Source of the DNA: Vulcanimicrobiota bacterium
GTDB taxonomy: Bacteria > Vulcanimicrobiota > Vulcanimicrobiia > Vulcanimicrobiales > Vulcanimicrobiaceae
DNA: 64,000 nucleotides
Direction of reading: 5' to 3'
NCBI GenBank assembly: GCA_963767635.1
Contig: CAVYEM010000001.1
Coordinates: 81,818-145,817, forward strand
The notes beneath the pieces were generated by a model. The model was not told the DNA's origin and searched no databases. It saw only the letters and a list, made by a program, of their open reading frames with translations. Position numbers and translations under genes: made by a program. The first letter of the stretch is position 1. Each line of letters starts with the position of its first letter. Of the stretch, positions 1,462 through 18,078 are shown in pieces.

Positions 1462-2760
1462 TGGTTGAACGAGGCTTCGTTACGCTTGGCACGCTCATTG
1501 ACAGTGGCCAGGTGGAGGCTGTAACGGGCTTTCCGTTTGGAGATCACAGGCAATGCCACGCTGGCGTCGCACAGATGCGCCCCTACAATGTAAAGATTAG
1601 CGGTCGAATTGATCTCAGCCAAATCAAATACGTTCCGAAAGACGCGTCGGATGGGCGGCCACAGCTGCGTGACAATGACATTCTATTCAACAACACAAAC
1701 ACGAAGGAGTTGGTTGGCAAATGCGCGCTGTGGACAATTGCGAGGCCATTCGTATTTTCAAACCACATGACGAGAATCCGGGTTCAGTGCGATAATCTTG
1801 ATCCGGGTTACCTGACTTTGCAGTGCTGCATCATTGGGCATGCGGCAGATCTCGAATGCTTGCAAGAGCACGACGTTGCCCAGGCCAGTCTTATAGGACA
1901 GCGATTTCGCGAAATTCGCATTCCGGCAGTCGATTACGAAGATCAGCGCTCCATCGCTCGTGCCCTGACCACGGTGCAGCGAAGCGTCGAACTTGAGGAA
2001 CAGTCCCGGCTCTGGCGTCTGCCCTGAAAACGGCGAAGAGGCAGGAGTTGTTTGGACGCGGATTGCGAGGCGAGCCGCAAAAGGAAACTGAGGTCGGCCG
2101 AATACCCGAGAGTTGGCAATTAGCGACCATTGGTGACCATTTTAGGTTGTTTCTGGTGGTACGCCATCACGGAATAATCCGAAATACTGGAACGCGGGAA
2201 CCATCCCGTGGGTGAAGACGACTGAGATTGACTACGGCCTAATTTGCTCGACGGAAGAATTCATCACAGATCTGGGCCTTCAGGAATCGGCTGCAAAGAT
2301 GCTGCCGTATGGAACGATTCTGATGGCGATGTATGGGCAGGGCGTAACCCGTGGCAAGGTTGCAATCCTAGGGATCGAGGCGGCATGCAACCAAGCATGC
2401 GCGGCAATGATACCCCTGGACGCGGCCGTCGAACCTAAGTATCTCTTCCATTTTCTTGCATACCGATACGTGGATATTAGAAGGCTCGCACACGGGGGAC
2501 AGCAGCAAAATCTGAACCTCGACATCGTTCGTGATCTTCCGATGGCTTTCCCCAAAGATCAGAACGAACAATTGGAAATTGTTGAGATTCTCGAATCCAT
2601 CGACCGAAAGATTGAGTTACACGTGCGCAGGAAGGCGGTGCTCGATAAACTATTCAACGCGCTGCTTAATGGCATGATGACGGGTGATATCGACGTTTCC
2701 GACATAGACGTTGAAGCGCATGAGAGCGGAGAACAGCGAGAAGAAGTGGCGGCGGTATGA
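1461..2760 (+). pseudogene. hsdS: Type I R-M specificity subunit HsdS, with two target-recognition halves and frameshifts near 2015 and 2145.
   Basis: ORF 1461-2027 (ILFNNTNTKELVGKCALW, then a conserved helical spacer) and ORF 2212-2760 (ILMAMYGQGVTRGKVAILGIEAACNQACAAM) are the two HsdS halves. The linker WQLATIGDHF...GGTPSRNNPKYWN lies in other frames. Confidence 0.8.
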
Positions 2761-5728
2761 GCGAGCTCTCCATTACGGAAGCGCGCACCGTCCAATTTCC
2801 TATGGTCGCGCACGTCGCGGAGATTGGCTGGACGCGACTCACGCCAGATGACGCAAAGGCAAAGCGTGGTGCCGAAGACGCGATGTTCTTTCGAGATGAT
2901 CTCTCGGCGAAACTGCGTGAATTCAACCCTTGGCTCAACAATGACTCGCTTCGGCAAATTGTCGAGAAACTCGAAGCACTGCGGCCGAGTATCGAGGGAA
3001 ACCGTGAGATGCTTCAGTGGCTCCGCGGCGAGCGGAGCTGGTACGACGAGGAAGAGAAGCGCCATCGACCCGTGAAAGCTCATCGATTTCGATCGGCACG
3101 GATGCAAACATGCTTTCACGTTACATGGGAATGGAAAATCAAGCCTCCAGCGCGTAAGGGCAATCGTGCGGATGTAATGTTCGCTGATCAACGGCATACC
3201 TGTCGTGCATCGTGGAGCACAAGAATCCGAAGGACGGCGATGCGATCGATAGAGGTATCGTGCAACTCCGGCCGATACGAGAAGGAAACACCAGAACTAA
3301 TGGCCGCTGCCGCAGATATTCAATGTAACCCATCTGCTGGATTACTGGTACGGCGTGACCTGGAATGCCACGCGACGCGGGATGACGCGATGGAAGGAGA
3401 GCGCCGGATGAAACTTATCGCTTTGCAGTGCAGTCATTTTTCGAGCGAACAGAGCTTCTTACGGACTCTGCAGCAATGGATATTGTTCTATGTTGAGGAC
3501 GACGAACTCCGCAAGTCCGTACTTCGCCAGCACCAGCGCCGTGCAGATCGACGCGAGTCATCGATCGTTGTGCCGACCGGCGAAAAGGCGCGGCCTCGAT
3601 GTGGCACACGCAAGGGTCAGGGAAGACTTTCACGCTGCTCACCGCGGCGCGGCTCGTTACTTGAAGATAAGAGACGATTCGCCAATGCGACAGTGATCGT
3701 CGTCGTGGACCGGACCGAGCTCGAAGGGCAGTTGAAGGGATGGGTGGACCGTCTGCTTGGTGAGATGCAGCAGCTGGACATTGCCAGTCGAGCGTGCCGA
3801 CGAGCAAGGCGGATCTTCAAGCGACTACTCGATCGCGGACTTCCGCGGCCTTAATCATTTCGATGATTCACAAGTTTGAAGAGGTCCGCAAAGCAGAGCT
3901 CGGAGCGAGACAACATGTTTGTCTTCATCGACGAGGCGCACCGCTCGGTCGCAAGGAACTGGGCACCTACCTTATGGCGGCCGCTTCCAAACTCGCACAA
4001 TCATTGGCTTCACTGGAACCCCAATTGCCCGAGGACAGCGCAAGGTCGAAGGAACGTTCAAGATTTTCGGGGCGGACGATGCAGACGGCTATCTCGACAA
4101 ATATTCGATTGCAGGAAACCATCGAGGACGAAACGACCGTGCCGATAAGGCACATGCTGGCGCCGAGTGAGATGACGGTCCCAGTGGAGCGAGCTGGATA
4201 AGGAATTCTTCGAGCTGGCTGGTACGAAGGGGTCACTGACGTTGAGGAGTTAAACAGCGTGCTTGAGAGTGCGGTTGCCCTTCGGACCTTCTTGAAGGCG
4301 GATGAGCCGAATGCGAGAATGTGGCGAAGCTTTATCGCGGAGCACTTCAAGCAAAATGTGCTTCCATTGGGATATAAGGCGTTCGTCGTTGCGGTCAATC
4401 GCGAAGCTTGCGCGAAGTATAAGCGCGAATTGGACAAGTTGCTTCCACCGAATGGTCGTGCCTATATACTCACAGAATGCCGCCGACATGATCGATCGTC
4501 CGCTTGTTGCCAAATATGCAGCTTTCCGAACGGGGCCAGGAAGACGAACATTCGGCGTCCTTTTCAAGAAGCCAGATCGAAGATCCGAAGATTGCTGATC
4601 GTCACTGACAAGCTGTTCACTGGCTATGATGCGCCGCTGCTCTATTGCCTGTATCTGGACAAGCCAATGCGCGACCACGTGTTGTTCCAGGCGATCGCGC
4701 GCGTCAACCGGCCTTACGAGGACGATGCGGCGAGCGAAGAAGGTTGGGCTGGTAGTGGATTTTGTCGGCGTACTGCGCGAACTGAAGAAGGCATTGCAAT
4801 TCGACTCTTCGGACGTAAGTGGCGTTATTGAAGGTCTCGACCTGCTGCATGGCGGAGTTCCTCAAGAAGATCGCGTGGCAAAGCGAAACATACTTGAAAT
4901 CGGCGATGGCGGAAGCGCGACGGACGAGCGGCTGGAAAAGCTTGTGTATGGGCCGCTTCCGAGATCCAGAAGCTCGAAAGACGTTTTTCGAGCGTACAAG
5001 GAGATCGAAGGATCTGTGCGAGATTTTGTCTCCTTCGCCGGAGCTGCGCGACCACATTCCGAGACGTACAAGCGGCTAGCGAAACTCTATGCCGCGGTGC
5101 GAAACGCATAGTCGACGAAAGTCGGCTTTACGGCCGATTTCGCTCACAAGACGCGCAAACTGATCGAGGAGAGCGCCGAGCACGCAAGGTCTGGAGCGAT
5201 TCAGTAAGAGCGTTACCTTCGATACCGCAACTTTGAATGTCTTCGGCGCGAGACCGGTTCAGACGAAGGTAAGGTCGTCAATCTTGTGAGAGGCTTGCAA
5301 AACGAGATTGAGGAGCATCCGGCGCAGTCGCGCCGTGCTCCAGTCTCTCAAAGACCGCGCCGAACGGATTCTCAAGAATGATGATCGGACGGACTACGAG
5401 CGCCAAGGCCGCGATGGAGCGAGCTGGAACGGCTCACCACGCAGAAAGCGGATGCAGAAAGAGCGGCTCGGAAAGCGGACTGTCGCCCCGGGCGTTCGGC
5501 GTGTTCTGGTCGTTGCGAGACGATGTGTCTCTCTCCGCGGCTGGAATCGACCCCATGCAAGTCGCGCGCGAGGCTCAGGCACTGCTGGAACGCTATCCCA
5601 ACGCCGCAGTGAACGCCGACGAACAGCGTCTCTTACGAACAGGGTTATATCGGCCGCTCCTTGCACTTTCGGCCGCCGACCTTAAGCGCATCGTGGAGCG
5701 TGCAATGTCGGCGCTCGCGATAGCGTAA
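2757..5728 (+). pseudogene. hsdR: Type I R-M endonuclease/helicase subunit HsdR, heavily frameshifted.
   Basis: Five pieces of HsdR lie in different frames. The N-terminus is ORF 2757. The DEAH box [10 protein letters not shown] is at 3918-3947. GFTGTPI is in ORF 3919-4170. [40 protein letters not shown] is in ORF 4259-4831. The C-terminal domain is ORF 5378-5728. Confidence 0.85.
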
Positions 5729-5734
5729 AGAACA

Positions 5735-6113
5735 TTGCGATCGTTCTCTTGTCATTTGTTCGACTCGTCGCGAATTAGGTATGTGAAGCAATCTGAGCGG
5801 CAGGCACTTCTGCGCCTTCGGCGCCGCGTTGTGCATTGGAGTGAGAAACTGGGCCTTACGCCGCGAGTCTTACGAATTCAACGCATGACTAGAAAATGGG
5901 GATCATGTTCTCCGGCAGGAACGATCACACTCGCCCGGGATCTCGCCAACCTCACTGAGTCGCTTCAGGACATCGTAATTGTGCACGGAGCTCCTTCATC
6001 TCCGAATGCGTAACCATGGAAGAGTGTTCCGCGCTTTAATGACTGCACACGTCCCGCATTGGCGGTCATTCGCAGCCTCAACAAGCCACGTCAAGCGCAC
6101 GAAAGTTGCGTGA
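5735..6113 (+). pseudogene. DUF45/YgjP-type zinc metallopeptidase remnant (an R-M-associated family). It is N-terminally short and has a frameshift near 5986.
   Basis: The ORF reads [18 protein letters not shown]. After a +1 shift it continues [28 protein letters not shown], which contains an HExxH motif. The stop is at 6111-6113. Confidence 0.6.
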
Positions 6114-6208
6114 AGAAATGGCGGCCTACAAACGGGTCGCCTCGAGCGGCCGGGTGCTTCGCTTCCTAGTTGCGTTGCTTTCGCCCAACCAATTTAACGG
6201 AACGCTAG

Positions 6209-6682
6209 TTGCTGATGTTCAGTACTAAGCTGTGGGCAAACACAGTGAGAAAGCGCGTGCTGCTAGATGAGCACCTGTCTGAAGATATTGCCGGAGTATT
6301 CGGCCCGCGTGACCATGTATATTTGGCGAAGGACGTGGACCTCAAGGGAAAGCCCGATCGCGACGTTATTGACTTCGCAATCAATAAAAAATGCCTGATC
6401 ATCACAAACGACGCGGGTTTGGTGAACGACTACCGCAACCATCCGCAGCGGCGCTCGAAACGCGGCATCCAGTTTTTCTACGGCCTGATTTATGTGCGCG
6501 CGGACTCTGACGTCGCACGTAAGCGACACATCGCCATTGCTGTAAGAGAAATGGCGTGGGGCGAAAGTCGACAGCATGATGATCTCGTGATCGTGTCGCG
6601 CGACGGGAAGACGGAACACTATCGGCTTTGTCACGCAGAGTGTGCCGCGGAGTTTGACAAGCGCGAAGGCAGAAGCGGGTAG
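6209..6682 (+). CDS. DUF5615/Mut7-C-like PIN-like domain protein, with no DUF433 partner.
   Basis: The motifs LLDEHL...DVIDFAINKKCLIITNDAG are typical of the DUF5615 family. It resembles the second copy at 17367-17741. Confidence 0.5.
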   Translation: MLMFSTKLWANTVRKRVLLDEHLSEDIAGVFGPRDHVYLAKDVDLKGKPDRDVIDFAINKKCLIITNDAGLVNDYRNHPQRRSKRGIQFFYGLIYVRADSDVARKRHIAIAVREMAWGESRQHDDLVIVSRDGKTEHYRLCHAECAAEFDKREGRSG

Positions 6683-6722
6683 CAGATGGCATACGGCGGG
6701 GTTGTTGCCGATACTCGGGCAC

Positions 6723-6974
6723 ATGGACTACGAAATGACGGAAGGCGAGGCTGCCTTACTCGACTGGGTTCTTGGGCCGTTTGACGGGATCGAGATTGAG
6801 CCAGGACTTTACGCCTTCAAGACAACTAATCAAAACGGCCTCGTCCAGTATTGTGTCGAGACGGAGGAGCGTTTAATCTGGTCTGCGCTCGACCTATACT
6901 ACAGTGATGAGGCTATCGAAGACTTCATCAAAGCCTATTCACTTCGTAAGAATGCCGATATGGTGGGCGCCTGA
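6723..6974 (+). CDS. Hypothetical small acidic protein.
   Basis: ATG-initiated ORF (MDYEMTEGEAALLDW...) inside ORF 6642-6974. I recognise no family. Confidence 0.3.
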   Translation: MDYEMTEGEAALLDWVLGPFDGIEIEPGLYAFKTTNQNGLVQYCVETEERLIWSALDLYYSDEAIEDFIKAYSLRKNADMVGA

Positions 6975-7149
6975 ACGCCGTGAGGCATGGGCCGTCGTTA
7001 CCCGTTCCGGCGGAACAACCGTCATATGCTACACGGAGTCCGAGGAAGAGGGGCGCGCAGCGTTGGAGCGCCGCGGTCTGAACGACGGCGGAGTACGCTT
7101 AGCGCGCGTTCGAGCAGACCTTAGTACGGGAAATGAAGTCGAGGTGTAA
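6952..7149 (+). CDS. Hypothetical small protein.
   Basis: ORF MPIWWAPERREAWAVVTRSGGTTVICYTESEEEGRAALE... overlaps the end of the previous ORF. I recognise no family. Confidence 0.25.
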   Translation: MPIWWAPERREAWAVVTRSGGTTVICYTESEEEGRAALERRGLNDGGVRLARVRADLSTGNEVEV

Positions 7150-7335
7150 TGATATGGCTTCGAACCGAAGCTCTGCCGTAGAAGGGCTCGTAAATGCGTG
7201 CGCATTGCTCGTGTGAGCCCTGCCAACTTTCGCGACCCGCGTGTCCGTAATTTTACTTTCCACGAACCTATCGCAGCTTAGAAAGCGCGCCGTGTGTTTC
7301 TTTTCCCTGCGCGCTAGGGTTCCGCACCGCGCGTC

Positions 7336-7373
7336 GGTCCGTCCGCAGTTTTATGCGGCGGACCGCCGCGCTA
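7336..7373 (+). repeat. Copy 1 of a conserved hairpin element (ggtccgTccgca-gtttta-tgcggcggacc, then cgcgcta).
   Basis: It is near-identical to 8496-8534. Both have an 11-bp stem with a 1-nt bulge and a 6-nt loop. Confidence 0.8.
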
Positions 7374-7415
7374 CCACGGCCGATACAATGACGCACGCTC
7401 CAGGAGGGCAACAAG

Positions 7416-7665
7416 TTGACGGAAACCGGCAATACCCCAGTGAGATCGGCCGCTGAGCTGCTCATCGCTCGACCATGCTAGGATTTGAAACGGCAAAGCG
7501 AATTGGAGAGTGGAAGACTTCACTAGACGATCTAACGGGCAAAAGTATCGTCTCAGCGCAGGTGAATAACCGGCACATGGAACTCGTGTCGGGCGACGGC
7601 CTTACGTGTCGTTCTACGGCTTGATCGAGGCCGTGCCGCCAGGCGGGACAAGTCTCTACGACTAC
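7416..7665 (+). pseudogene. Decayed paralog of the small ORF at 8560-8811, with two frameshifts.
   Basis: The SD caggagg is followed by TTG at 7416. The segments GKSIVSAQVNNRHMELVSGDG and RFYGLIEAVPP align with GKTIVLARVDRRHIELVTNDG and RFAFYGLIEAVAP of the intact copy, but they lie in different frames. Confidence 0.6.
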
Positions 7666-8009
7666 GCCTCTGCGAACTCGCGCTATAGGTGCTCCTTGCG
7701 GCCCTCTTCGCGAGAATTGTTTTTCAGGCGGTATTAACGGCAAAAAAAGCCTCGCCAAACCACTCGTGAAAATCCGCGAAAAGTTGTGGAAGACGCGCGC
7801 AAAGCGTCTCCTCTCGCGCGCTCAAACTGAGGCCGTGCTTTTGGGTTCTCAGAGACCAGAAACGTTCGTCCTCGTTTCCTCGATTTAGCTAGTCGAGATA
7901 GACGAAATGGCGGCAAACCGCGTTTCAGCCCGATGGGCGGCGCCCGGACGTACAAAAGAAAGACAGGAAGGATTGGCGGCAAAGTTGGACCTCAGCCGAT
8001 ACTCGCGCT

Positions 8010-8276
8010 ATGAAAAAGGGAGCGAGAATCGATGTGCGCCTCAGCGCAGCAGAAAACCAACGGTTCGAACGACGGCGGAAAGCCGCACCGCAGGGGTTTA
8101 ACCGGGCTAAATATGCGCGGTCGCTACTGCTGGCGGACCGCCTGATTCCGGCCGAGCACCTCGTGAACGAAATGCGCGAACTACGGTTGGCTCTGGCGCA
8201 TCAGATTCCCCAGTCGGTAACAGCGCGCGTAGAGGAGCTTTACTGCGCTGCACTTGATGCGGTCATCAAGAAGTAG
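8010..8276 (+). CDS. MobC-like ribbon-helix-helix mobilisation accessory protein.
   Basis: RIDVRLSAAENQRFERRRKAAPQGFNRAKYARSLLL matches the MobC pattern RxxxIxVRLSxxE...YxRxxLL. An XRE-HTH-like remnant (QEGLAAKLDLSRYSRYEKG) lies just upstream in another frame (7907-8040). Confidence 0.5.
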   Translation: MKKGARIDVRLSAAENQRFERRRKAAPQGFNRAKYARSLLLADRLIPAEHLVNEMRELRLALAHQIPQSVTARVEELYCAALDAVIKK

Positions 8277-8495
8277 TAAGGGTATGGGCGCAGCGCGTTG
8301 GCGACTGGGCCAATAGTTCGGAAATTCCGCGGCGACCGCAACGGGCCGGTAAAGGCATCGCGGGCACCTGTCGCGGCCGCGATGGCACATCGCTTATCAT
8401 GTCGAGACCGGCAACTCGGATGTCGGCGCTAGTGCTGTGTGGAGCTCGCTCCTAACTCAGCGTTCCAAACGGAGCACGTTAGTACCGTAGCGCGA

Positions 8496-8534
8496 GGGTC
8501 CGCCCGCAGTTTTATGCGGCGGACCGTCGCGCTA
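8496..8534 (+). repeat. Copy 2 of the conserved hairpin element. It is followed by TATAGT (8533-8538) and an SD.
   Basis: The sequence is gggtccgCccgcagttttatgcggcggaccgtcgcgcta. It has the same arms and loop as 7336-7373. Confidence 0.8.
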
Positions 8535-8559
8535 TAGTCCTACTACAGGAGGTGCTGAA

Positions 8560-8811
8560 TTGGACGAATCCCTTGAACCTGGAACCGGCTCGCGGTCAGA
8601 GCACCTGATCCGCCAGGCATCCTACGACTTTGAGCGCGACGCCGCACTTCGGCGCTCGGCTATCGAAATACAGAAGATTGCCGGCAAAACTATCGTCTTG
8701 GCCCGAGTCGATCGCCGGCACATCGAACTCGTCACCAACGACGGCTGTCGTTTTGCGTTCTACGGGCTCATTGAGGCCGTTGCACCTGACGAAGCGGGCC
8801 TGTTTGACTAG
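8560..8811 (+). CDS. Hypothetical 83-aa protein, the intact copy of the duplicated cassette.
   Basis: The SD caggagg lies 8 nt upstream of a TTG start. A decayed paralog at 7416-7665 argues that this is a real gene. Confidence 0.5.
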   Translation: MDESLEPGTGSRSEHLIRQASYDFERDAALRRSAIEIQKIAGKTIVLARVDRRHIELVTNDGCRFAFYGLIEAVAPDEAGLFD

Positions 8812-9381
8812 CAACGTCCGTTACGGCATTTGAGCACGAACAAGCCAAAGAAATACCGCATTACCGCTGGGTCGCAGCCGGGCACCTCCGCGGATTCCGA
8901 CACGGCACACGGCGACTCCAAACTTGTGCCGATACTCGGTCCACAATGAACGACAAGCACAGCGTACGAAGCCGCGGTTTTAAACTTAAGGTTCGGGTCT
9001 GTTTCCGGAGCCGGCCGACATGCCGCACAATCCTGGTTGATGTCCATGCAGCGTACTGGCACTTCCTCGATTTGGCGTTTTCGTTGGGGGAGCGCAATGA
9101 GCCCGGTTTCATCCGGAGTCACGAATCAAGACGGGTTCCACCTGCACTTCAAAACGATCTGAAAGAACCGATGCTCTACTTGCTCGATAACGGCAGACCT
9201 GGCGCGCCATACGACATCTATCTGAGCGACGCCTCGTTTCTCATCGACGATGTGACTTCATGCAGTTCGTCGCCGGTCACTAACTCCGAGCAGCCGCGGC
9301 TGCCCGGCTTTTCACTTGAGTCGACGCAACTGCCAAACCAAACGCGAGCGTTGGCGCTCGCGGCGCCATGCCTGAGAAACC

Positions 9382-9924
9382 ATGGAAACTAAAAAAGCAA
9401 ACCTTCAAGCGGAGTTCACGCAAGCGCCAGACGTTGTTAAACCGCGTACTTTGGATGACGCGCTCTTCTGCGAATCGAGCGATCCAGGAATCGAAGCTGC
9501 AGCCGCGGTCCAATCGACGCGGAGCATTCCGGAACGCAAGTTTCTGGACATCGATGAGGCTGGAGTCTACCTCGGCTGTTCAAAACGCACGATCTACAAG
9601 CTGTGTGCGTTGAGGAAACTCGCGTACCACGAAGCCGCAGGCGTTCGTTGGTTTCTAAAAGAGGACTTGGACGAATACATCGCCAGTGGACGCGTGGACG
9701 TGTTATGGTGGCCGGCGGCACTCGAGGAAAACCGCGTGAGCGCGAGCAGTTTGCCTTCGTGGTGGCAAAAAGGTATGCGCCGGAAAAGCGGTGGCCGAAT
9801 CGAGTGGCGATTCTATGTTGTAACGCCAGACCGGCTCAAAACAGGTGTCGGCTTACGGACGTACCATCACGGAACTGAAGGCGGAACGGAAGCGCTTGGA
9901 GCGTCTCTACGAGTTTGCTCCTGA
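9382..9924 (+). CDS. Excisionase-family (MerR-like) helix-turn-helix DNA-binding protein. Its tail runs into the integrase arm-binding region.
   Basis: FLDIDEAGVYLGCSKRTIYKLCALRKLAYHEAAGVRWFLKEDLDEYI is a typical excisionase-type HTH. The same frame continues to RKSGGRIEWRFYVVTPD. Confidence 0.55.
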   Translation: METKKANLQAEFTQAPDVVKPRTLDDALFCESSDPGIEAAAAVQSTRSIPERKFLDIDEAGVYLGCSKRTIYKLCALRKLAYHEAAGVRWFLKEDLDEYIASGRVDVLWWPAALEENRVSASSLPSWWQKGMRRKSGGRIEWRFYVVTPDRLKTGVGLRTYHHGTEGGTEALGASLRVCS

Positions 9925-10927
9925 GCGTATCACGCTAAATGACCTGCTCGATCGCTACATTGATGAGAAGCGTTCAAACAAGAAGATCGATCAACGTAAA
10001 GTCGCCGATACCGAAAGCCGCTTCGAGCGGTTGATTCGGCCTCAACTCGGTCGCCTGACCATCGGTGCCCTGTGTATGAACTGGGCCGTCTTAGGCGAGC
10101 ATTTTCGGTCGCTCTGTAACAAGCATCCGAACAGCTACGTAGTCCGGCGCGTTTTTGATGAATTAAGGGGCGCGTTCAAGTATGCCGTCGCGCGTCAATT
10201 GTGCGCGATCAATCCGGTTCTACACTTGGAGCGTCCGAAGTACGCAGCGCAAAAGAAGCGCCAGCCTTTCACACTCGATCAGGTCCTGGATCTGCTCATC
10301 AAAGCCGTCGGACGGGACCGGGTTATCATCGCCTTCTTAGTTATGACCGGCGTGCGGACGTGGAGCGAGATGAGCGGCCTTCGTGTCCGGGACTGCAACT
10401 TATTAAAGAAAACCGTGCAACTTAGTACGTTTGTCCGCCGCGATGAGAAAGGGCGGCCGGTTGAAAAGCCAGAGATCGCCGGCGAACCGCGCGGCAAAAC
10501 ACAACGAGCCGAGCGGGAGATACCGCTGATTGAACCGCTAATCGATATGTTGGAGCCTTACATCCGTTCCGCCGGCCTCGGGCCTGATGACTACTTATTT
10601 CCGAATAAACGTGGCGGTCTTCTCAGAGGCAACAACTGGTGTCGGCGCGTGTGGAAGGATCTCGCAGAGGCTGTTGGTAGGCCTGAAGCCGTGCCATACG
10701 AGCTTCGGCACACGACCAATACGTTGCTCGCCGCACTTGGGGTCGACGTAGGGACGCGGGCGGCAATATGTGGTCACTCGACGGCGGTTAACGAATCCGT
10801 ATACACAAAGAGCACTCTCGAAGCCAAACGCGAAGCTCTGGACAAGTTAGGCGTGCTCTTTCCGAAGATTGCGTCGATGCCTACGGCACCTGACGAGCGA
10901 GAAAGTGGCGCAGAAGGCGCCGCATAG
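9845..10927 (+). CDS. Tyrosine recombinase / phage-type integrase. The true N-terminus probably lies upstream in another frame.
   Basis: Catalytic-domain signatures are present: RxxxL region (GLRVRDC), ELRHTTNT, ICGHS and VYT (R..H-x-x-R..H..Y). Confidence 0.9.
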   Translation: MSAYGRTITELKAERKRLERLYEFAPERITLNDLLDRYIDEKRSNKKIDQRKVADTESRFERLIRPQLGRLTIGALCMNWAVLGEHFRSLCNKHPNSYVVRRVFDELRGAFKYAVARQLCAINPVLHLERPKYAAQKKRQPFTLDQVLDLLIKAVGRDRVIIAFLVMTGVRTWSEMSGLRVRDCNLLKKTVQLSTFVRRDEKGRPVEKPEIAGEPRGKTQRAEREIPLIEPLIDMLEPYIRSAGLGPDDYLFPNKRGGLLRGNNWCRRVWKDLAEAVGRPEAVPYELRHTTNTLLAALGVDVGTRAAICGHSTAVNESVYTKSTLEAKREALDKLGVLFPKIASMPTAPDERESGAEGAA

Positions 10928-11397
10928 CAAAACACGTACAGCAAAAGAGGAAATGTGTTGAAGACCATCATCGAAGCAATCGTAGAATTTTTTGGATCGC
11001 TTCTGGGGATTCGAAGCGTAATCGATCGACCTCTGCGCAGGTCGTCAGACTCGCGATCACAAGGATGAGTAGTAGTTCCGAGTTTGAGGGAGATACTACG
11101 TGGACTGTGGGACCTAATCGAGGGTCTCTGGAATGAAGAACGCGTCCTCGCTCGTAACGCGGAGCCGCCACTTAATCGCGTTCCGACGGCCGATGGACTG
11201 AGTTATCGAAGATAACTATCGCCGGCGTCTGCCACGTCGGATAGAGCGTACCGCAATGTCCTCTCACTGCTGTCGTTTTGCGGTACTTTGCGAACGTCGC
11301 CTCAATGAGGTTATCTCCGGGGGTGCGAGACGGACGCTCAGAGGTCGAAAAATGCGTCTCCCGCGTCCTCCCGGCCCCTTTCATTGTCGCCAAACGG

Positions 11398-11426
11398 TTG
11401 ACAGCAGTTCGAAAGCTGCATAACCT
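11398..11426 (+). promoter_or_regulatory. Sigma70-type promoter candidate for the XRE/ImmA pair.
   Basis: TTGACA (11398-11403), a 17-nt spacer gcagttcgaaagctgca, and TAACCT (11421-11426). The ATG of the XRE gene is only ~11 nt downstream, so the transcript would be nearly leaderless. Confidence 0.4.
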
Positions 11427-11436
11427 ACGGGACAGC

Positions 11437-11771
11437 ATGAAAACTCTTGGTGAGCGAATTCGGGAGTAAGGGAGCAAAAGGACATTTCGCTCCGTGAACT
11501 CGCTAGGGTCATTGGCACGTCGGCAGCGTTTCTTTCCGACGTAGAACTTGGCCGAAGGCACCCCTCACCGCCGGTGCTCAAGGATTTAGCGAAGCGGTTA
11601 GGGACGACCGACAAGGATCTTGAGCAGTTCGACCGACGGCCGCCTATAAAGGATCTGCAACGTCGAGCTGCCATCAATCCCGCGTACGGCGTTCTCCTTC
11701 GAAGAGTTCTCGAGGACGACGATCCTGAAGCCGTGATTAACTGGCTTGAGAAACGTCGCAAGAAATCATGA
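11437..11771 (+). CDS. XRE-family HTH transcriptional regulator (ImmR/CapH-like), with a 1-nt frameshift near 11467.
   Basis: MKTLGERIRE is followed, after the shift, by REQKDISLRELARVIGTSAAFLSDVELGRRHPSPPVLKDLAKRLG. That is a canonical HTH_3 domain. ORF 11574-11771 is the downstream part. Confidence 0.75.
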
Positions 11772-12463
11772 GGACACGTAGCATAGCCGACGGGCCATTC
11801 AGGGAGCGGCCGTACTACTCGCTTGATGAAATCGAGCAAATGTGCTGGGATGAACTCCATAAGGCTGGGCTCTATCCAGAAACACCGTCCCGGATTCGTA
11901 TTGATCGCTTTGTTGAAAAGCGGTTTAACGTAAGCATCACTTACGATGATCTACCCAAGGGCCTGCTCGGCTTTACAGAGTTTGGCCCGAAAGGTGTTGT
12001 TGCCGTGGTCGTTTCTAAGACGCTCGATGACGGTTATCAGAGTTCCGAACGCCGAATCCGTACCACACTGGCGCACGAATCTGGCCACGGCCTTCTGCAC
12101 ACCTATCTCTTGGCGCTTGGCGCTGAGACGCGGTCAATGTTTGAGGGTGCCGTCGATGATCGTCACCGGCTATTATGTCGCGAGGACGCGTCTTCGAACT
12201 GGAAGCCTGGCAAGTACGACGGCAAATGGTGGGAGCATCAGGCTAATCTTGCAATGAGCTCGTTGCTATTACCGCGCGGGCTCGTGGATCTCGCGCTTGA
12301 TCGGATGTTGAACTCGAGCGGTTCGCTTGGTGTTAAGACCGTTGCAAGCGACCGCCGCAACGACGCGGTGAATACGTTAGCAGGCGTATTCGATGTAAAT
12401 CCAGTGGTCGCTCGGATTCGGCTCGACGCCCTCTACCCGGAGAGCGCGCAGTTGACGCTCTAA
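11768..12463 (+). CDS. ImmA/IrrE-family (COG2856-type) zinc metallopeptidase.
   Basis: HExxH motif LAHESGHGLLH. There is a 4-nt start/stop overlap with the XRE gene, which is the classic HTH-plus-metallopeptidase pairing. Confidence 0.85.
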   Translation: MRTRSIADGPFRERPYYSLDEIEQMCWDELHKAGLYPETPSRIRIDRFVEKRFNVSITYDDLPKGLLGFTEFGPKGVVAVVVSKTLDDGYQSSERRIRTTLAHESGHGLLHTYLLALGAETRSMFEGAVDDRHRLLCREDASSNWKPGKYDGKWWEHQANLAMSSLLLPRGLVDLALDRMLNSSGSLGVKTVASDRRNDAVNTLAGVFDVNPVVARIRLDALYPESAQLTL

Positions 12464-12500
12464 AATTTTTTCGCTATACTGTAAGCTGACGGAAGCTTAC
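12452..12500 (+). promoter_or_regulatory. Strong sigma70-type promoter plus a downstream inverted repeat (operator candidate) for the Ubl operon.
   Basis: TTGACG (12452-12457, inside the last immA codons), a 17-nt spacer, and TATACT (12475-12480). A perfect 7-bp inverted repeat follows immediately: gtaagct-gacgga-agcttac (12481-12500). Confidence 0.5.
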
Positions 12501-12598
12501 GATGTTGCCCGCGTGCGGCGTGATGGACCGGCTGATTCAACGGGTCTTTGCTTGTCGCCACAACTACCTGTAACGCCACCCCTGTAAAGGAGTAAAGC

Positions 12599-12867
12599 AT
12601 GTCTGAAGAACCCCATGTCCTCGGCGTCTCAGTAATTACCCCGAAGGGGCTGTATCCGAACAATGAGGACTATCGCCGGGTCCATTCCAACGAGAAGATT
12701 CAGGCTCTCCTCGATTTAGTGAAGGAAGAGCAAAAGATTACCAATACCGATGGCTGGGTCGTTACGGTTGGCGAACGGGACGTCAACCCGGCCAAGACGT
12801 TCAAGAAGAAGACTTGAAGTGCGTGGTCGACATGGAATGGCACAAAGGCGAGGGTGGCGGTGGCTAG
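12599..12867 (+). CDS. Ubiquitin-like beta-grasp protein (BilA-like). It is ~89 aa after correcting a 1-nt frameshift near 12800, and it ends in GEGGGG.
   Basis: The SD aaggag lies 6 nt upstream of ATG 12599. The annotated frame stops at 12817 (..FKKKT*). The adjacent frame reads QEEDLKCVVDMEWHKGEGGGG* with its stop at 12865-12867, overlapping the next gene's start. Confidence 0.6.
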
Positions 12868-13315
12868 TGAAGCGATCGCGCGCCCGCTCTTCGAGCAAGA
12901 CGTAGGTCACCTCACGGAGGCAGCAGCGAAAGTAATGGGCGTAGTCGTAAATGCAAGAGAGTGGCCTGTGTTTGACGTCACGATCTTGCACAAGACGCCC
13001 GTGCGGCTCCGCTTCACGTGTAAGGAGTGGGACGCATTACCGCCGTCGATTGCATTCCTAAATCCGGACGGGAGTCCTTACACGGGCAATGTGCCGCCGG
13101 GTAACATTTTCAATAAGAACTTAGGGGACGTTTTCATCTGCATGCCGGGATCTCGCGAGTATGAGACCGTTGGGAACCATCACGCCGATGACTGGGAGAA
13201 CTATCGTGGCAAAGACGATATGACGATCCTCGGAATTTTTCAAAAGCTCGTCGCGCATGGCTTAGAGGGATTTGAAACTCCGTTGCCCGCGCGCGGTGCT
13301 GCATTGCACGATTGA
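12854..13315 (+). CDS. E2-like (UBC-fold) ubiquitin-conjugating enzyme homolog (BilB-like).
   Basis: Size, operon position, and the arrangement FLNPDG...GDVFICMPGSREY (an HPN-like motif followed by a candidate catalytic Cys). The call rests on context and pattern, not on a strong motif. Confidence 0.5.
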   Translation: MAVASEAIARPLFEQDVGHLTEAAAKVMGVVVNAREWPVFDVTILHKTPVRLRFTCKEWDALPPSIAFLNPDGSPYTGNVPPGNIFNKNLGDVFICMPGSREYETVGNHHADDWENYRGKDDMTILGIFQKLVAHGLEGFETPLPARGAALHD

Positions 13316-13736
13316 GCTGATGCAGGAAGCTGGGCGGTCCGAAATGGAGCGCGTGGTTTTTTGGCTTGCGCACAGCCCGACCGACCTCGGTCTTATTGTT
13401 CAGGCCTATTCGCCTCAACAAACGGCGGCGTTTGATTTCTTTCACATTCCGAAAGAGGCAATGCGAGCGCTGATGCAGCACCTTCGCAAAGGACACCTCT
13501 CGTTGGTTGCGCAGGTGCATTCGCATCCGCTAGAGGCTTTCCACTCTCGGGCCGACGATCGCGAAGCGATCGTGCGTCACGAGGGTGCCCTCTCGATTGT
13601 CGCGCCTCATTTTGCACTATCGTTGACCGCCCAGTCTTTTAAAGATGAGTGTGCGTTCTTTGTGCTAACGAAGGAAGATAATTGGAGAGCGATTCCTGCT
13701 AGCGATCGTGATTCGTTTTTCGAGGTTTTGGCATGA
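13272..13736 (+). CDS. JAB/MPN (JAMM) metalloprotease (BilC-like deconjugating or maturation peptidase).
   Basis: The JAMM signature is present: conserved Glu (SEMERVVFWL) and then QVHSHPLEAFHSRADD (HxH...SxxD). Confidence 0.85.
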   Translation: MKLRCPRAVLHCTIELMQEAGRSEMERVVFWLAHSPTDLGLIVQAYSPQQTAAFDFFHIPKEAMRALMQHLRKGHLSLVAQVHSHPLEAFHSRADDREAIVRHEGALSIVAPHFALSLTAQSFKDECAFFVLTKEDNWRAIPASDRDSFFEVLA

Positions 13737-15100
13737 ACGCGCAGCGCGAGAACCGCCTGATGGTCGCGCATCTCTTAGGAATTGCTGAGGAAGATGCTTC
13801 AACTCGTCTTGCAGCGACGGTAGCAATAACGACCGATGGCTCGTCGGAAATAGCGTATGAGTTTACTGAAATCATTGGAAGAACGTTGACCGTTGTAACT
13901 GATGGTCGGGCCGACGTCGAGGTCGTGTTTAGCTCCGAATCATCGTCTCGATCCGAAACACGATTCTTTGTATCTTTAGATGCCGACGGTCTTGTAGTAT
14001 CGCGGGAAGGCCCATCTGTGATAGAGCCGTGCCACCCGTTACTTGCTGCGATCGCGTCTTGTTACGTCGCAGGAGTTGTTGTCTCGGCTGCGGTGGGAAT
14101 TCATATGGGACAACCCTCACCATTCCGCGTCGACTTCAAGAAACTTGGTATTTCGGCCGATATGCTGCAGAAACGTCCATTTCTAGAGGACGCTGCGCTC
14201 GCTGGGGCGGGAGCGGTCGGTAATGGATTTCTTCGGGCCTTGCGGCATATCGACGTGCATGGGTCGCTCGCAGTTGTCGATCCCAAAAAAGTCTCAGATG
14301 GCAATACCAACCGATGCCTTTATTTTACGGATGAAAGCATAAGGAACGAGAAGGCTGAGGAGCTTTCGCAACGAGCGCAGGCCGACTTCAAAAATCTGAA
14401 ATTGATGTCGTATGTTGGGGATTTTCAGACTATGTTGAGAGTAGGGATCCGAAACGGGTGCGACGGGTCTTTGTGGGAACTGACAGCCGTCGGGTTCGTC
14501 GCCGTATTCAGGAAGAGCATCCCCTTGAGGTGATCGACGCCTCTACAAGCGATGCTTCGGAAATAATTGTCCATTCTCACCGCTACCCTACGCCGTATGC
14601 GTGTCTTGGATGTATCTATAAGCACACACCGGTCGAAGATAGTCGTGAGCTGGAAATTTCTGCCGCACTGGGCTTAACCGTTGATGATGTTCGCAAGGAC
14701 CGAATCGATGCTGAAATGGCTGAGAAGATCCTCAACAAGTATCCTCACCTCACCATCGAAGACATCGTTGGTACGGCATGCGATAGTCTGTTCCGTAGCC
14801 TATGCAGCGAAATGGCATTGCAGCTTCCGGGTCAGGAGCAGGTTCTCAGCTCCCTTTGCTTTCGTTTCAGCCCTTGCTGGGTGCTTGATGGTCGTCGAGT
14901 TGTTGAGATTTGAGAGTCGTGATTTCCAATTCAACTACTTCTTCACCGACCCATGGATGCCGCCGCATTTAGAAACACGCATTAGGAGGCTGAAGGCTCA
15001 GAATTGCATGTTCTGTTCTCGGCCGGCGAACTTCGAGGTAATGGACGCGCTTTGGGCGGACATCCTAGGCCGTCTGATGTTGAATGAGGGTACTTCTTGA
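13733..15100 (+). CDS. E1-like ThiF/MoeB-family adenylating enzyme (BilD-like), with frameshifts near 14429 and 14850.
   Basis: GAGAVGNG (GxGxxG), VVDPKKVSDGNTNRCLYF (DxxxVxxxNxxR), two CxxC pairs (CLGC and CMFC), and SAPFAFVSALAGCLMVVELLRF. The pieces are ORFs 13733-14533, 14458-14913 and 14681-15100. Confidence 0.8.
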
Positions 15101-15218
15101 CGTAGCGCGCGCGGCGCTACAATGGTTTTCTGCGCCGTTTGCTGCACGCAGGAGCCCCAGACCCACCAGCCGTTCGACGTTCGATCGACGGGTGGCAGTC
15201 ATCCGGCGATTCGGAGCC

Positions 15219-15452
15219 ATGACGACCGACCCGCCGCCGATGCATTGGGCTCCGTGCCATGCGAACACAATCAAATACTTCAAGGCGTCGCTGACCTGCA
15301 GCAATGGACACTCAATGACATTACGCGGGCACAGCGTTTCTGCAGCCGGAATTGTCCGACCCAGTGTAGTGTGTCCCGCCATAGGCTGCGATTTTCACGA
15401 CTATGTACGTCTCGATGAATGGAGTTTTGGTGATGTCGCCGCTCGGAGGTAG
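15219..15452 (+). CDS. Hypothetical 77-aa Cys/His-rich (zinc-ribbon-like?) protein downstream of the E1 gene.
   Basis: The ATG at 15219 opens MTTDPPPMHWAPCHANTIKYFKASLTCSNGHSMTLRGHSVSAAGIVRPSVVCPAIGCDFHDY. A TTGACG/TACAAT promoter-like element lies at 15097-15123. Coding status is uncertain. Confidence 0.25.
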   Translation: MTTDPPPMHWAPCHANTIKYFKASLTCSNGHSMTLRGHSVSAAGIVRPSVVCPAIGCDFHDYVRLDEWSFGDVAARR

Positions 15453-16515
15453 ACCCGAATGGCCTGAACGCTCGTTTCGCGTCGGCAGAAAGAAGCGTCA
15501 ACGATGCCTTCTTGGGGATTCAGAAAGAGCGGGTGGACGCTGTCGAGCTTAAAGCGTGCGGCGCCGCTATTGGTAAACGGATACCCAACGCTCGTGCTCC
15601 ACTTTGAGCGATGAAACGACTTCGGCAATGAGATTGTCGTCGATAGACTCCTGGATTGCCGTTGCCGAATGGGTTCTTTGTTCGGAGTGCGCCGTACCGG
15701 CCCAGCAACGTCGGCATATTCCCGAAACTGAAGATCGTTGTGATACTGAATATCTGGATGGAATGATTCGTGGCGATACCGATGTTGTGAGTCTGCGGCG
15801 CCGGAAGATGAGGTGAATAAGCGCGCGGCCAACACGCCCGTTGCCGTCGATGAAGGGGTGGATCGTTTCGAACTGGGCATGCGCGATCGCGGCTTGCGCT
15901 ACCGTCGGCAGCGAGGAATCGTTGCAAAATGCGCATAGATCATCGAGAAGCGGATCGACCATTTCCCACGGTGGGGAACGAAGGATGCAGAGCACGGATC
16001 GTAACTGCTGCCACCGATCCAATTCTGTTGCGTGCGGTCTGTCCGCCGTGCTCTTTGAGCATTGGTGGTTCGAGCAGACGTCGATGCGTTTCGCGAAGGA
16101 GCGCAGGCGTGATCGAACTACCCCTGTTTCCCGCTTGTATTGCATAAGCCATCGCATCAATATTTGCGAGCACTTCGGCCGCGGTTGCATCGCCTGAATC
16201 GTTGCCTTGTTGCCGCGCAGCGTCGGCTAATAGCAGCCGACGAGGGTCGACTACAAAGCCTTCGATATGGGACGAAACAACCGATTCCGCACGCAACAAG
16301 AGGCGAGCCAGCGCTTCCACGTCGGCCAGCACGGTTGCCGTTCGATCGAGGTCCAAGATGGTGTGCTCGGCATCGGCAACGTCAGCCGCTTCCTCGCCGC
16401 CGATTGAAAGGTGGGTTTGGCCAGACCCATCGGGGATATAGACCGAGTAGGGGCTGCCTTGGTCATGCCGGGGGTACTCCCGTTCCGCGGGTAGGCCGCC
16501 AGCGGCCCAAGCCAA
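15401..16515 (-). pseudogene. Fic/DOC-family protein, with at least four frameshifts. The 3' end is uncertain.
   Basis: The Fic_N region is LLLRAESVVSSHIEGF. RTQQNWIGGSSYDPCSASFVP lies in a third frame. The intact core motif HPFIDGNGRVGRALIHLI is in ORF 15567-16190. Confidence 0.8.
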
Positions 16516-16587
16516 AGAATCCGGTTATTAAATCCGTTCGGACGTCAAAGAACCTTTTAATGTTCTAGAGGCTACCGTTGGAGTACA

Positions 16588-17145
16588 ATGGGAGCCATGG
16601 ACAAAGAAGAAGCCGATGTCCGAAGAACTGCAGCGGTCCGAATGCTAGAGAAGGCGGCGGCAACCTACGCAAGTCACCCTGTGGACTTCGTTGCCTACTT
16701 GCGGACGGTGCAGCAAAAGTATCCGGATGTCGCGATAGTCGCCGAGATCAAGTCGCTGGTAGACAGTTCCGAGCGCCACGAGGAGGCTTTGGGAAAGGTC
16801 CGTTCTTTGCTAAAGAGCGCCTCAGAGGTGACCGAGCGACTACGTGTCGAGGTGAATGCGACCACTGAGCGGGCGCTTGCGGAACGCCGACGTCGCCGTC
16901 GGCTGCAAATAGAGATTCGTCCGACGGAAGAGCATATAGTCGCGCGATTGATGGAAGCATTCAGCACAAACGAATCCGATGCAGGGCGGCAGATGCTGCA
17001 GATCGTTGGGCGTCTCGATAGATCTCGTCGACCGTGGTTTCATAATCGCGGCCCACCCCGCGACAGACGAGACTGCTGTAGATGCGCTACCCGACCTCAC
17101 CCGCGCGATGCGTCGCGACGTCTACCAATACCGCCATCTCGTTGA
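16588..17145 (+). CDS. Hypothetical protein. The C-terminal Arg-rich tail is probably not real.
   Basis: The ORF has a plausible helical N-terminal ~130 aa. I recognise no family. Confidence 0.3.
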   Translation: MGAMDKEEADVRRTAAVRMLEKAAATYASHPVDFVAYLRTVQQKYPDVAIVAEIKSLVDSSERHEEALGKVRSLLKSASEVTERLRVEVNATTERALAERRRRRRLQIEIRPTEEHIVARLMEAFSTNESDAGRQMLQIVGRLDRSRRPWFHNRGPPRDRRDCCRCATRPHPRDASRRLPIPPSR

Positions 17146-17398
17146 ATTACCCCATCCATGGAGGCGACGACTGTATTTCAAGGGCCGCCGTCTTACGGTG
17201 TCACAAGTGATCGATCAGATGCGAGCGAATGGATGGAGCGTCGATCAGACGGCGGACGAGTTCGATCTTACCTCCGCTGCCATTGCCGAAGCGCTTGAAT
17301 ATGCTGTGCGGAATGAGTCCTTGCTGAGGGAAGAAGCAGCGGAAGAGCGGCGCCGCGCGCGAATGGGTGCCACGCAACGTGCGTCTGCTGCTGGATGA
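17108..17398 (+). CDS. DUF433-domain putative antitoxin.
   Basis: RRLYFKGRRLTVSQVIDQMRANGWSVDQTADEFDLTSAAIAEALEYA matches the DUF433 pattern. The start is uncertain (the ORF opens at 16979). Confidence 0.6.
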   Translation: MRRDVYQYRHLVELPHPWRRRLYFKGRRLTVSQVIDQMRANGWSVDQTADEFDLTSAAIAEALEYAVRNESLLREEAAEERRRARMGATQRASAAG

Positions 17399-17741
17399 AT
17401 GCTGCGCACACAAGGCGCTTGTCAGCGAACTAAAAGCGCGCAACTATGATGTGGCTCGAAGCATCGATCTTGTTGGTGAAGGCGCGACCGATCCGATGGT
17501 TTTCGCGTGCGGAATTAGCGAGAATCGAATCCTGATCACTGCGAACTGTGGCGACTTCATCGCGCTCGCGGAAGCGAACGACGAGCATCCCGGCCTGATG
17601 CTGATATATCCAGACGACGGCGGAAATGCCATGCCCACGGCTGCAATAGTGAAGGCTGTAGTGAACGTGCGGCAAAGCTTCGGTGAAGACTTTGCCGCGC
17701 TCCGTGGACAGCGCATTCCGCTGCCGCAGTACGTCTGGTAA
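17367..17741 (+). CDS. DUF5615 PIN-like putative toxin, paired with the DUF433 gene.
   Basis: VRLLLDECC...DPMVFACGISENRILITANCGDF. It overlaps the DUF433 gene end, which is the usual TA-style arrangement. Confidence 0.6.
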   Translation: MPRNVRLLLDECCAHKALVSELKARNYDVARSIDLVGEGATDPMVFACGISENRILITANCGDFIALAEANDEHPGLMLIYPDDGGNAMPTAAIVKAVVNVRQSFGEDFAALRGQRIPLPQYVW

Positions 17742-17924
17742 GGCGCCCGAAGGCTAAAACGGCCGCGAGTCAGGCCGGCGTCGCCGCCAATTGTCTGCAC
17801 GATTCGGTGCGAAGCGCGTTCGGGAGTGCAAACGAAAAAAGGTCGTCGACGCTTAGCAATGGAGGCCAAAGTAGACATACTCCGCAAACTAGGCATGCTC
17901 TTTGGGCCCTTTCACAGTGGGAGG

Positions 17925-17948
17925 GGACAAGGGTCAGGACAAGGGTCA
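17925..17948 (+). repeat. Tandem duplication of the 12-mer ggacaagggtca (x2), upstream of the tRNA.
   Basis: Read directly: ggacaagggtca ggacaagggtca at 17925-17936 and 17937-17948. Confidence 0.9.
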
Positions 17949-18002
17949 AGAGCTGATGAAGGGTGTAGTGCTATGGGAATCCGTCATATAAAATAACGTC
18001 AC

Positions 18003-18078
18003 GGGCGATTAGCTCAGCTGGGAGAGCGCCTCCCTTACAAGGAGGATGTCGGCGGTTCGAGCCCGTCATCGCCCACCA
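18003..18078 (+). tRNA. tRNA-Val (anticodon TAC) with an encoded CCA.
   Basis: GGGCGATTAGCTCAGCTGGGAGAGCGCCTCCCTTACAAGGAGGATGTCGGCGGTTCGAGCCCGTCATCGCCCACCA folds as a cloverleaf. The anticodon loop is CTTACAA and the T-loop is GGTTCGAGCC. Confidence 0.95.

Follow-up and report, generated by a model that had tools for sequence, protein, structure and literature searches.

What is encoded by a run of seven co-directional, close-packed genes at 11438-15452 on the plus strand of the window, and how much of it belongs to a system that is already described? The window is the whole stretch of 64,000 nucleotides analysed here, from contig CAVYEM010000001.1 of a Vulcanimicrobiota bacterium (assembly GCA_963767635.1). 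A preliminary description had named seven co-directional open reading frames (ORFs) at this locus, and all of them are present on the plus strand where it had placed them (Table 1). It had read them as a Bil-type conjugation operon, with genes for a ubiquitin-like protein (Ubl), an E2, a JAB peptidase and an E1, beside an XRE regulator and an ImmA-like peptidase resembling CapH and CapP, and had proposed that the operon might form a distinct subtype. Our answer is that the locus is very probably a CapH/CapP-regulated Type II BilABCD (CEHH/6C) Ubl conjugation operon with a fifth linked gene, here called ORF5. The copy as read cannot work because five 1-nucleotide (nt) frameshifts break capH, bilA, bilB and bilD.

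We consider the conjugation genes first. Type II BilABCD is the name that Chambers et al. gave to the CEHH/6C operons, in which the order is Ubl, CEHH/E2, deubiquitinase (DUB), E1 (10.1101/2023.09.26.559546). In the window the Ubl, E2, JAB and E1 genes occupy 12599-15100 in that order, their ends overlapping or abutting, and the same gene order is found in L001 (the closest homologue in ENA), in the metagenome contig L002 (the closest one from the Joint Genome Institute, JGI) and in further related loci. The linkage counts for JAB, E2, Ubl and ORF5 refer throughout to 82 related loci gathered via the E1; JAB is present in all 82, E2 in 77-78 and Ubl in 76. Given its recurrence in 76-82 of the 82 loci, the Ubl-E2-JAB-E1 set lies far beyond chance. 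The preliminary description had proposed looking for such co-occurrence in other genomes, and had held that homologous loci without the Ubl and E2 genes would speak for a sulfur-carrier pathway; nearly all of them have both. While a scan of genome contigs with the single E1 protein returned no relative, the alignment-based E1 scan found relatives, the closest genomic one being an Eremiobacterota metagenome-assembled genome (MAG) with 52% E1 identity.

The E1 matches Pfam E1-N (2.5e-19) and ThiF (2.5e-12). It combines an inactive E1-N adenylation domain with an active ThiF adenylation domain, the latter with an insertion that bears a Cys, and has four zinc cysteines. The alignment to BilD (PDB accession code: 8tyz_A, 4e-6) spans the insertion and matches SLC358 with the AIC of BilD. 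The protein is 63% identical to the intact homologues P0001 and P0002, and about 42% identical to homologues from Methylobacterium, Rhizobium and Bradyrhizobium. Residues C291, C294, C358, C426 and C429 are invariant in 21 E1 sequences, and the window copy keeps all 45 residues invariant among its 21 homologues, including the catalytic Cys and both CxxC pairs.

The E2 scores 28.3 bits against Pfam Metal_CEHH (PF14455), above the cut-off of 25, and its match to BilB (PDB accession code: 8tyz_C) goes from 5e-4 with the single sequence to 4.7e-12 with a profile of 46 E2 homologues. C96, E102 and H109 align to C138, E144 and H151 of BilB, and the catalytic Cys is invariant in the E2 family. The JAB matches the PADLOC BilC model (4.2e-15), Pfam Prok-JAB (31.4 bits) and BilC itself (PDB accession code: 8tyx_B, 1.8e-10) with the HSHP...S..DD motif aligned; in tblastn it aligns with the JAB of L001 over its full length in a single frame. 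Ensifer aridi BilD, BilB and BilC are the only significant PDB sequence matches of the E1, E2 and JAB. The profile and PADLOC searches that the preliminary description had suggested return Metal_CEHH, E1-N, ThiF and Prok-JAB on the one hand and BilC, capH and capP on the other, and together with the PDB matches they bear out its reading of a Bil-type operon beside a CapH/CapP-like pair. Judged by sequence, the locus has the gene order, the CEHH-family E2, the multidomain E1 and the BilC-like JAB of a Type II operon.

The Ubl is aligned by tblastn to that of L001 in two frames at 65-69% identity, and a C-terminal GGG is invariant across 48 members of its family, whose sub-threshold matches are mainly to ubiquitin-fold families (Ufm1 at 1.8e-5, TUG-UBL1 in 9 members, RA and Rad60-SLD). 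Several observations weigh against the Type II assignment. The Ubl has no match among PDB chains, either as a single sequence or as a profile, its hhalign comparison with E. aridi BilA is not significant (P = 0.11), and a single-sequence AlphaFold2 (AF2) model has the order beta-beta-alpha-beta-beta at low confidence (predicted local distance difference test, pLDDT, 53). A beta-grasp fold for the Ubl is weakly suggested, by the family-level matches and the context. The distance from the E. aridi set is large, with about 25% identity for the E1 and no detectable sequence likeness for the Ubl. In the window E2 the CEHH motif has lost its first His (E104), and a second invariant His is missing as well (V106); H104E and H106V are unique among 77 members, His being found in 76/76 others, and no other of the 78 family members deviates as strongly. 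The His equivalent to BilB H146, which is Glu in the window E2, is structural and not catalytic (10.1101/2023.09.26.559546). The antiphage role of Type II Bil is itself still unproven in the literature (10.1101/2024.11.21.623966).

We turn our attention to the last gene of the run. ORF5 is a real, conserved gene and an accessory component of this clade of Bil systems. Its start at 15084 overlaps the E1 stop and is not an internal ATG; in L002 the homologous gene likewise begins at the E1 stop, and the two proteins share 56% identity along their whole length, N-terminus included. Of the 82 related loci, 38, from many phyla, have a homologue no more than 7 kb from the E1. It stands immediately downstream of the E1, as here, in 5 of these and upstream in 33, where it either ends a divergent regulator unit or precedes an embedded RES/Xre toxin-antitoxin pair. 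The linkage also holds in the reverse direction: three out of three ORF5 homologues picked regardless of context adjoin Ubl-CEHH-JAB-E1 genes, and a metagenome scan seeded with the ORF5 family only gave 21 loci whose flanks reach at least 5 kb in either direction, every one of which carries Ubl, E2, JAB and E1. Counting against a core role, the gene is missing from 44 of the 82 Bil loci and hence is not essential to the pathway.

Does ORF5 belong to anything already named? At 90% identity the family falls into 261 clusters, none of them named and none with a Pfam family, and Pfam scans of ORF5, of 21 relatives (E up to 10) and of 10 short relatives gave no match. Three papers on Bil and Bub systems (10.1101/2023.09.26.559546, 10.1101/2024.11.21.623966, 10.1101/2024.11.21.623953) make no mention of a gene of this type, and full-text searches found no other description. 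The ORF5 family is absent from the described Bil architecture and is a novel part of the locus. Fifteen columns are invariant across 117 ORF5 sequences, including W55, C72, G75, H76, H83, S94, C97, C102 and H105. AF2 run with the family alignment folds residues of about 40-120 into an all-beta domain (pLDDT 95 or higher), preceded by a low-confidence hydrophobic N-terminus. A Foldseek search of this model against PDB and BFVD returned nothing below E = 1, and the family profile has no match among PDB sequences. The preliminary description was right to place this Cys/His-rich ORF outside the described Bil architecture, where it proves to be a conserved Bil-linked gene; it is not a simple zinc ribbon, the model being all-beta and about 80 residues long.

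The surroundings of ORF5 differ among the related loci. In 13 of the 82 a RES/Xre (ParST/MbcTA-type) toxin-antitoxin pair lies between ORF5 and bilA, always together with ORF5 (examples are L086-L091, L083 and L084, from Rhodopseudomonas palustris BisB5 and Methylobacteriaceae among others). In several genomes the whole RES/Xre-ORF5-bil block is directly 3' of Tn7-like transposition genes (TnsA-like, rve, TniB, TniQ), and because of this position the block may be transposon cargo. The L026-type loci (14/82) have a divergent unit upstream of bilA that encodes a ribbon-helix-helix protein and a conserved 224-residue protein without a Pfam family, with ORF5 further upstream on the same strand in 10/14. 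In L001 the ORF5 homologue is followed by a 150-residue ORF (9952-10404) with a HEFGH metallopeptidase-like motif and no Pfam match. In the window, a terminator-like GC-rich hairpin with a weak T-run at 15102-15120 was considered and rejected, as it is inside the conserved 5' coding region of ORF5 and such sites are below the shuffle expectation.

The regulator pair upstream of the bil genes is the remaining part of the assignment. The XRE gene matches Pfam HTH_31 (6e-15) and HTH_3 (5e-14) as well as PADLOC capH (1e-12), and the M78 gene matches PADLOC capP (1e-8), with a Pfam Peptidase_M78 score of 21.0 bits just under the cut-off of 22; capH and capP are the top PADLOC matches of the two genes. 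By these matches the window has an XRE helix-turn-helix repressor gene and an M78 HExxH peptidase gene beside a defence operon, the arrangement that defines CapH/CapP. The capP product is 59% identical, over its full length and in a single frame, to the homologue in L003, an Eremiobacterota MAG and the nearest genomic relative that has the same regulator pair (tblastn). Some pair of helix-turn-helix and M78-like genes, of three types, is present in 41 of the 82 related loci. Right after the capP stop there is a promoter-like site at 12452-12480 (TTGACG, 17 nt, TATACT; 10/12 consensus matches), and directly 3' of it the palindrome GTAAGCT-N6-AGCTTAC (12481-12500). At the corresponding offset from its own capP stop, L003 carries GTAAGCC-N6-GGCTGAC, in which the two arms have changed in step. 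The palindrome is a plausible candidate for the CapH operator.

Table 1. Features of the locus in window coordinates
Feature	Coordinates	Strand	State and sequence marks
capH-like XRE helix-turn-helix repressor gene	11438..11771	+	broken: 1-nt deletion near 11467
capP-like ImmA/IrrE (M78) zinc metallopeptidase gene	11768..12463	+	intact; HESGH motif
promoter-like site and palindrome, candidate CapH operator for the bil genes	12452..12500	+	consensus scan, palindrome
bilA, single-domain Ubl, ~90 residues, EGGGG then stop	12599..12867	+	broken: 1-nt deletion near 12812
bilB, CEHH-type E2, catalytic Cys96, FICMPG	12854..13275 (corrected end)	+	broken: 1-nt deletion near 13249
bilC, JAB/JAMM deubiquitinase-like peptidase	13272..13736	+	intact; TTG start; HSHP...SRAD
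bilD, multidomain E1	13733..15100	+	broken: 1-nt deletion near 14428, 1-nt insertion near 14848; GAGAVGNG, CLGC, CMFC
ORF5, 122-residue Cys/His-rich accessory gene	15084..15452	+	intact

Is the damage real? The five frameshifts fall within 3.7 kb, which is a high density. They were mapped by three-frame translation and confirmed with tblastn: the closest intact homologues of the Ubl and E1 spread over two or three frames, those of capH and the E2 lose their ends, and capP, JAB and ORF5 each read through in a single frame. The capH lesion turns TT into T, so that the frame-0 ORF stops at 11468-11470, and the CapH of L003 aligns at 70% identity from 11466 in a frame differing from that of the ATG. 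The preliminary description had given the E2 as a 153-residue ORF to 13315; this as-read ORF runs on because of the bilB frameshift, and the corrected E2 probably ends at 13275. Its C-terminus, ...QKLRRAWLRGI*, is recovered in the other frame, with a TGA stop that overlaps the TTG start of the JAB, and this overlap is found in L001 as well. Two further candidates were examined in the E2. Local double frameshifts were rejected as the source of the two histidine changes; because no alternative frame restores the histidines, H104E and H106V are taken as substitutions. W136G was discarded, since it is produced by the fifth frameshift.

The odds of real decay and of assembly error are about even. 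The latter account, in which all five frameshifts are errors of assembly or base-calling and the real operon is intact and functional, has only a little less than an even chance. All five lesions are 1-nt indels, mostly in runs of 2-3 identical bases, with no in-frame nonsense codon, and nothing has been lost from the invariant residues of the E1, the 20 conserved positions of ORF5 or the JAB residues. The setting is also consistent with errors. The locus is in a low-GC island (window 1-18000, 55% against 64% GC in the core) that is full of broken genes at a similar density of about one break per kb, including the Type I restriction-modification (R-M) genes hsdM, hsdS and hsdR in at least 8 pieces (994-5685) and a Fic gene in two pieces (15567-16515, minus strand), while four genes tested in the core, 7.7 kb in total, are intact. 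Such a pattern fits an accessory island assembled at low coverage, although breaks confined to the island are equally expected from relaxed selection on it. Single-base indels occur in JGI metagenome assemblies too, because the E2 of L002, the closest JGI homologue, is likewise frameshifted (2307-2657; 116 residues with an unrelated C-terminus). Against errors stand the substitutions, since indel-prone sequencing makes none: two histidines invariant in all other E2 members are gone, and the E1 has an A310S that is unique to the window copy. Furthermore, a 266-residue protein from an NCBI source is identical to the first E1 piece, which suggests that the deposited record has the same break.

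The R-M, Fic and toxin-antitoxin genes of this low-GC island agree with the defence-island setting that had been claimed for the locus. Several other features of the island are recorded here. A DUF433 and DUF5615 pair at 16979-17741 resembles a toxin-antitoxin module, and a second DUF5615 ORF is at 6209-6682. An HTH_17 (excisionase-like) ORF and a tyrosine integrase lie mid-island (9382-10927). A tRNA-Val gene (18003-18078) marks the right edge, where the GC content rises, and bases 1-17,950 of the window contain no repeat of its sequence of at least 12 nt.

We return to ORF5 and ask what it may do. The nearest candidate for a relative is BubE (DUF6527, PF20137), described by Ye et al. as a beta-sandwich of about 110 residues with a hydrophobic extension, a zinc cluster, a Ser-His dyad and no structural neighbours (10.1101/2024.11.21.623953). 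The motifs agree (PSVVCPAIGCDFH in ORF5 and PSIGNWQFPCRSH in E. coli BubE), and an hhalign alignment of ORF5 with DUF6527 is collinear over 89 columns and pairs the Ser, Cys and His of one family with those of the other (P = 0.0016); the register is unchanged with two other alignments (P = 0.021 and 0.0094). In a column-shuffle control the mean score is 12.8 (standard deviation 3.0) against 26.2 observed, and 1 of 200 shuffles reached the observed score. When the DUF6527 hidden Markov model (HMM) is run against 13.8 thousand ORFs, the ORF5 domain takes 47 of the top 100 non-self matches where 2.7 are expected, and the reverse search is similarly enriched; the P values given here for the link are inflated, members within each family being related. 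Two points count against the relation, namely that PF20137 has no match to ORF5 or 21 relatives even at E up to 10, and that the hhalign P value shifts from 0.0016 to 0.02 with the alignment. The homology between ORF5 and DUF6527 is likely, by a modest measure, and unproven.

The ORF5 core is also found away from Bil operons. A full HMM search with the ORF5 profile, run against 1.8 billion representative proteins, gives 1849 matches at E up to 1e-3, most of them the core domain alone (70-95 residues). A scan with a 9-sequence alignment finds 68 stand-alone core genes in IMG/VR viral contigs (L093-L160) with no Bil genes nearby. The stand-alone proteins (P0399-P0504) follow the pattern W...TC.NGH...DH.I..DG.V.PSVVCP..GC.FHE.V.L.GW, have no Pfam family and form hundreds of representative clusters. 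A short protein of this type has no tblastn match among the INPHARED phages.

We tentatively propose that ORF5 is an unrecognised fifth functional component of a large Type II Bil clade, with a divergent BubE/DUF6527 fold, acting as a zinc-binding Ser/His peptidase or a regulator. It is rather unlikely, in comparison, that ORF5 is no peptidase and serves as an E3-like adaptor, a sensor or a conjugation substrate, for example a phage-derived domain that recruits or mimics a target. In favour of this reading, an E3 gene is missing from Bil operons, Type II Bil has no known targets, stand-alone ORF5 cores occur in 68 viral contigs, the Cys/His cluster could be a plain structural zinc site, and the BubE homology is only suggestive. 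A pure adaptor would hardly explain the invariant Ser and His at the spacing of E. coli BubE (PS-x7-C-x2-H), and ORF5 has neither a RING or U-box-like pattern nor, by Foldseek against PDB and BFVD, a fold match to any E3.

Could the locus still be a truly distinct and undescribed Bil subtype, by virtue of its regulator pair, its minimal Ubl with a free Gly tail and its extra ORF? This is improbable. The proteins are indeed distant from the characterised E. aridi set, ORF5 is outside the published architecture, and the subclade of the window (L001-L054) mostly has ORF5. Every core feature nevertheless fits the published Type II definition, and ORF5 is the sole difference. The regulator pairing, which had been offered as a mark of a new subtype, is already published for Type II, with CapH/CapP at 25/162 operons in the study of Chambers et al., who also solved a single-beta-grasp BilA (10.1101/2023.09.26.559546). 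The minimal Ubl fares no better as such a mark: Gong et al. report one beta-grasp domain in 105/134 Type II operons (10.1101/2024.11.21.623966), and an end exactly at the Gly run is common to at least 8 other loci. The genera of the homologues with about 42% E1 identity, Methylobacterium, Rhizobium and Bradyrhizobium, have catalogued Type II operons. A sulfur-carrier (ThiS/MoaD-type) adenylation pathway, suggested by the ThiF-family core of the E1 and a small protein ending in Gly-Gly, has a negligible chance and is excluded because of the extra E1-N domain, the conserved catalytic cysteines including that of the insertion aligning to BilD, and a UBC-like E2 and JAB in 77-82 of the 82 loci, with no ThiG, ThiH, MoaE or rhodanese among the most conserved neighbour clusters or called genes of the examined loci.

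Membership in two other known classes was considered and rejected. Type I BilABCD is disfavoured by the single-domain size of the Ubl and by PADLOC, which finds no BilA in the window, leaves the E2 without a BilB match (E up to 1), and gives the E1 a weak BilD match (0.0029) over 117 residues of the nucleotide-binding core. The Bub (6E/DUF6527) class is disfavoured by the catalytic Cys that is present and invariant in both E1 and E2, by the separate genes, and by the DUF6527 HMM, which gives no PF20137 match across the 82 loci.

The gene content, the family assignment, the frameshifts and the linkage between ORF5 and Bil are shown by the results above. Taking the locus as a Type II operon, we infer its regulation and its chemistry by homology with the biochemically characterised Ensifer aridi system, and also infer a function for ORF5. 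The CapH-like XRE repressor would bind the palindrome, which overlaps the promoter just upstream of bilA, until the CapP-like M78 peptidase removes it upon DNA damage or infection. BilD would then adenylate the C-terminal Gly of the single-domain BilA, take BilA onto its insertion Cys (SLC358) and hand it to Cys96 of the CEHH-type BilB, which would attach the Ubl to target lysines; the BilC JAB peptidase would trim or remove it. ORF5 would most likely act as a small peptidase or regulator that binds zinc, carries a Ser/His pair and is related to BubE (DUF6527), possibly membrane-held through its hydrophobic N-terminus.

While the core operon only adds one more copy, and a damaged one, of a system with enzymology that has been worked out, ORF5 offers more. 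It is found only beside Type II Bil operons, in about half of them, and gives a handle on their targets and biological output; it may control deconjugation, localisation or target choice. Should the BubE relation hold, it would link two families of bacterial Ubl pathways that are treated as separate and extend a peptidase fold without structural neighbours. A viral counterpart is possible too, given the relatives in viral contigs. If the proposal for ORF5 is true, the thioester-based Bil and the oxyester-based Bub systems would share an accessory enzyme, and the 70-95-residue phage homologues could be viral counter-measures that strip Ubl conjugates.

How does the locus compare with the known systems? 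BubE and ORF5 are both about 110-120 residues long, are encoded beside Ubl, E1 and E2 genes, and have a hydrophobic terminal extension followed by an all-beta domain, a Cys-rich zinc-type cluster, an invariant Ser and His in the motif PS[VI]-x6-7-C-x2-H, and no structural neighbours in Foldseek. ORF5 differs from BubE in having no match to the Pfam model (with profile-profile P values of 0.0016 to 0.02), in its candidate zinc ligands (C/H/C/C, not C4), in an extra invariant His83 and a W55/C58/H59 segment, in accompanying a thioester-type (Cys) E1/E2 and a separate JAB where the Bub enzymes are of the oxyester type, and in its stand-alone relatives in viral contigs.

As in CapH/CapP of CBASS and other defence systems (Lau et al. 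2022, as cited by Chambers et al. and Gong et al.), an XRE helix-turn-helix repressor gene is followed by an M78 HExxH peptidase gene and the pair adjoins a defence operon; here, as also in L003, the pair is co-directional with the operon and not divergent, capH is frameshifted, and the Peptidase_M78 score is slightly below the Pfam cut-off. Type I BilABCD (Collimonas sp. OK412; Hor et al., 10.1101/2023.09.04.556158) has the same four functions in the same gene order, and a JAB that, like the one here, matches PADLOC BilC, whereas its Ubl has two beta-grasp domains (ISG15-like) and the window Ubl, at about 90 residues, is of single-domain size.

The closest comparison is with the Type II BilABCD of E. 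aridi TW10 (PDB accession codes: 8TYX, 8TYZ, 8TZ0). Besides the distance of its E1 and Ubl and the E and V in place of two conserved histidines of the E2, the window differs from it by the five frameshifts, by a Ubl that ends at the Gly run and for which trimming would not be needed, and by ORF5, which is absent from the published description. What the two share is the order Ubl, CEHH-type E2, JAB and E1, an E1 with an inactive N-terminal adenylation domain, a Cys-bearing insertion and a four-Cys zinc site, the FxCMxGxREY...H...W active-site stretch of the E2, a Ubl of single beta-grasp size with a conserved C-terminal Gly, and a place in a defence island; CapH/CapP is shared with a subset of Type II operons.

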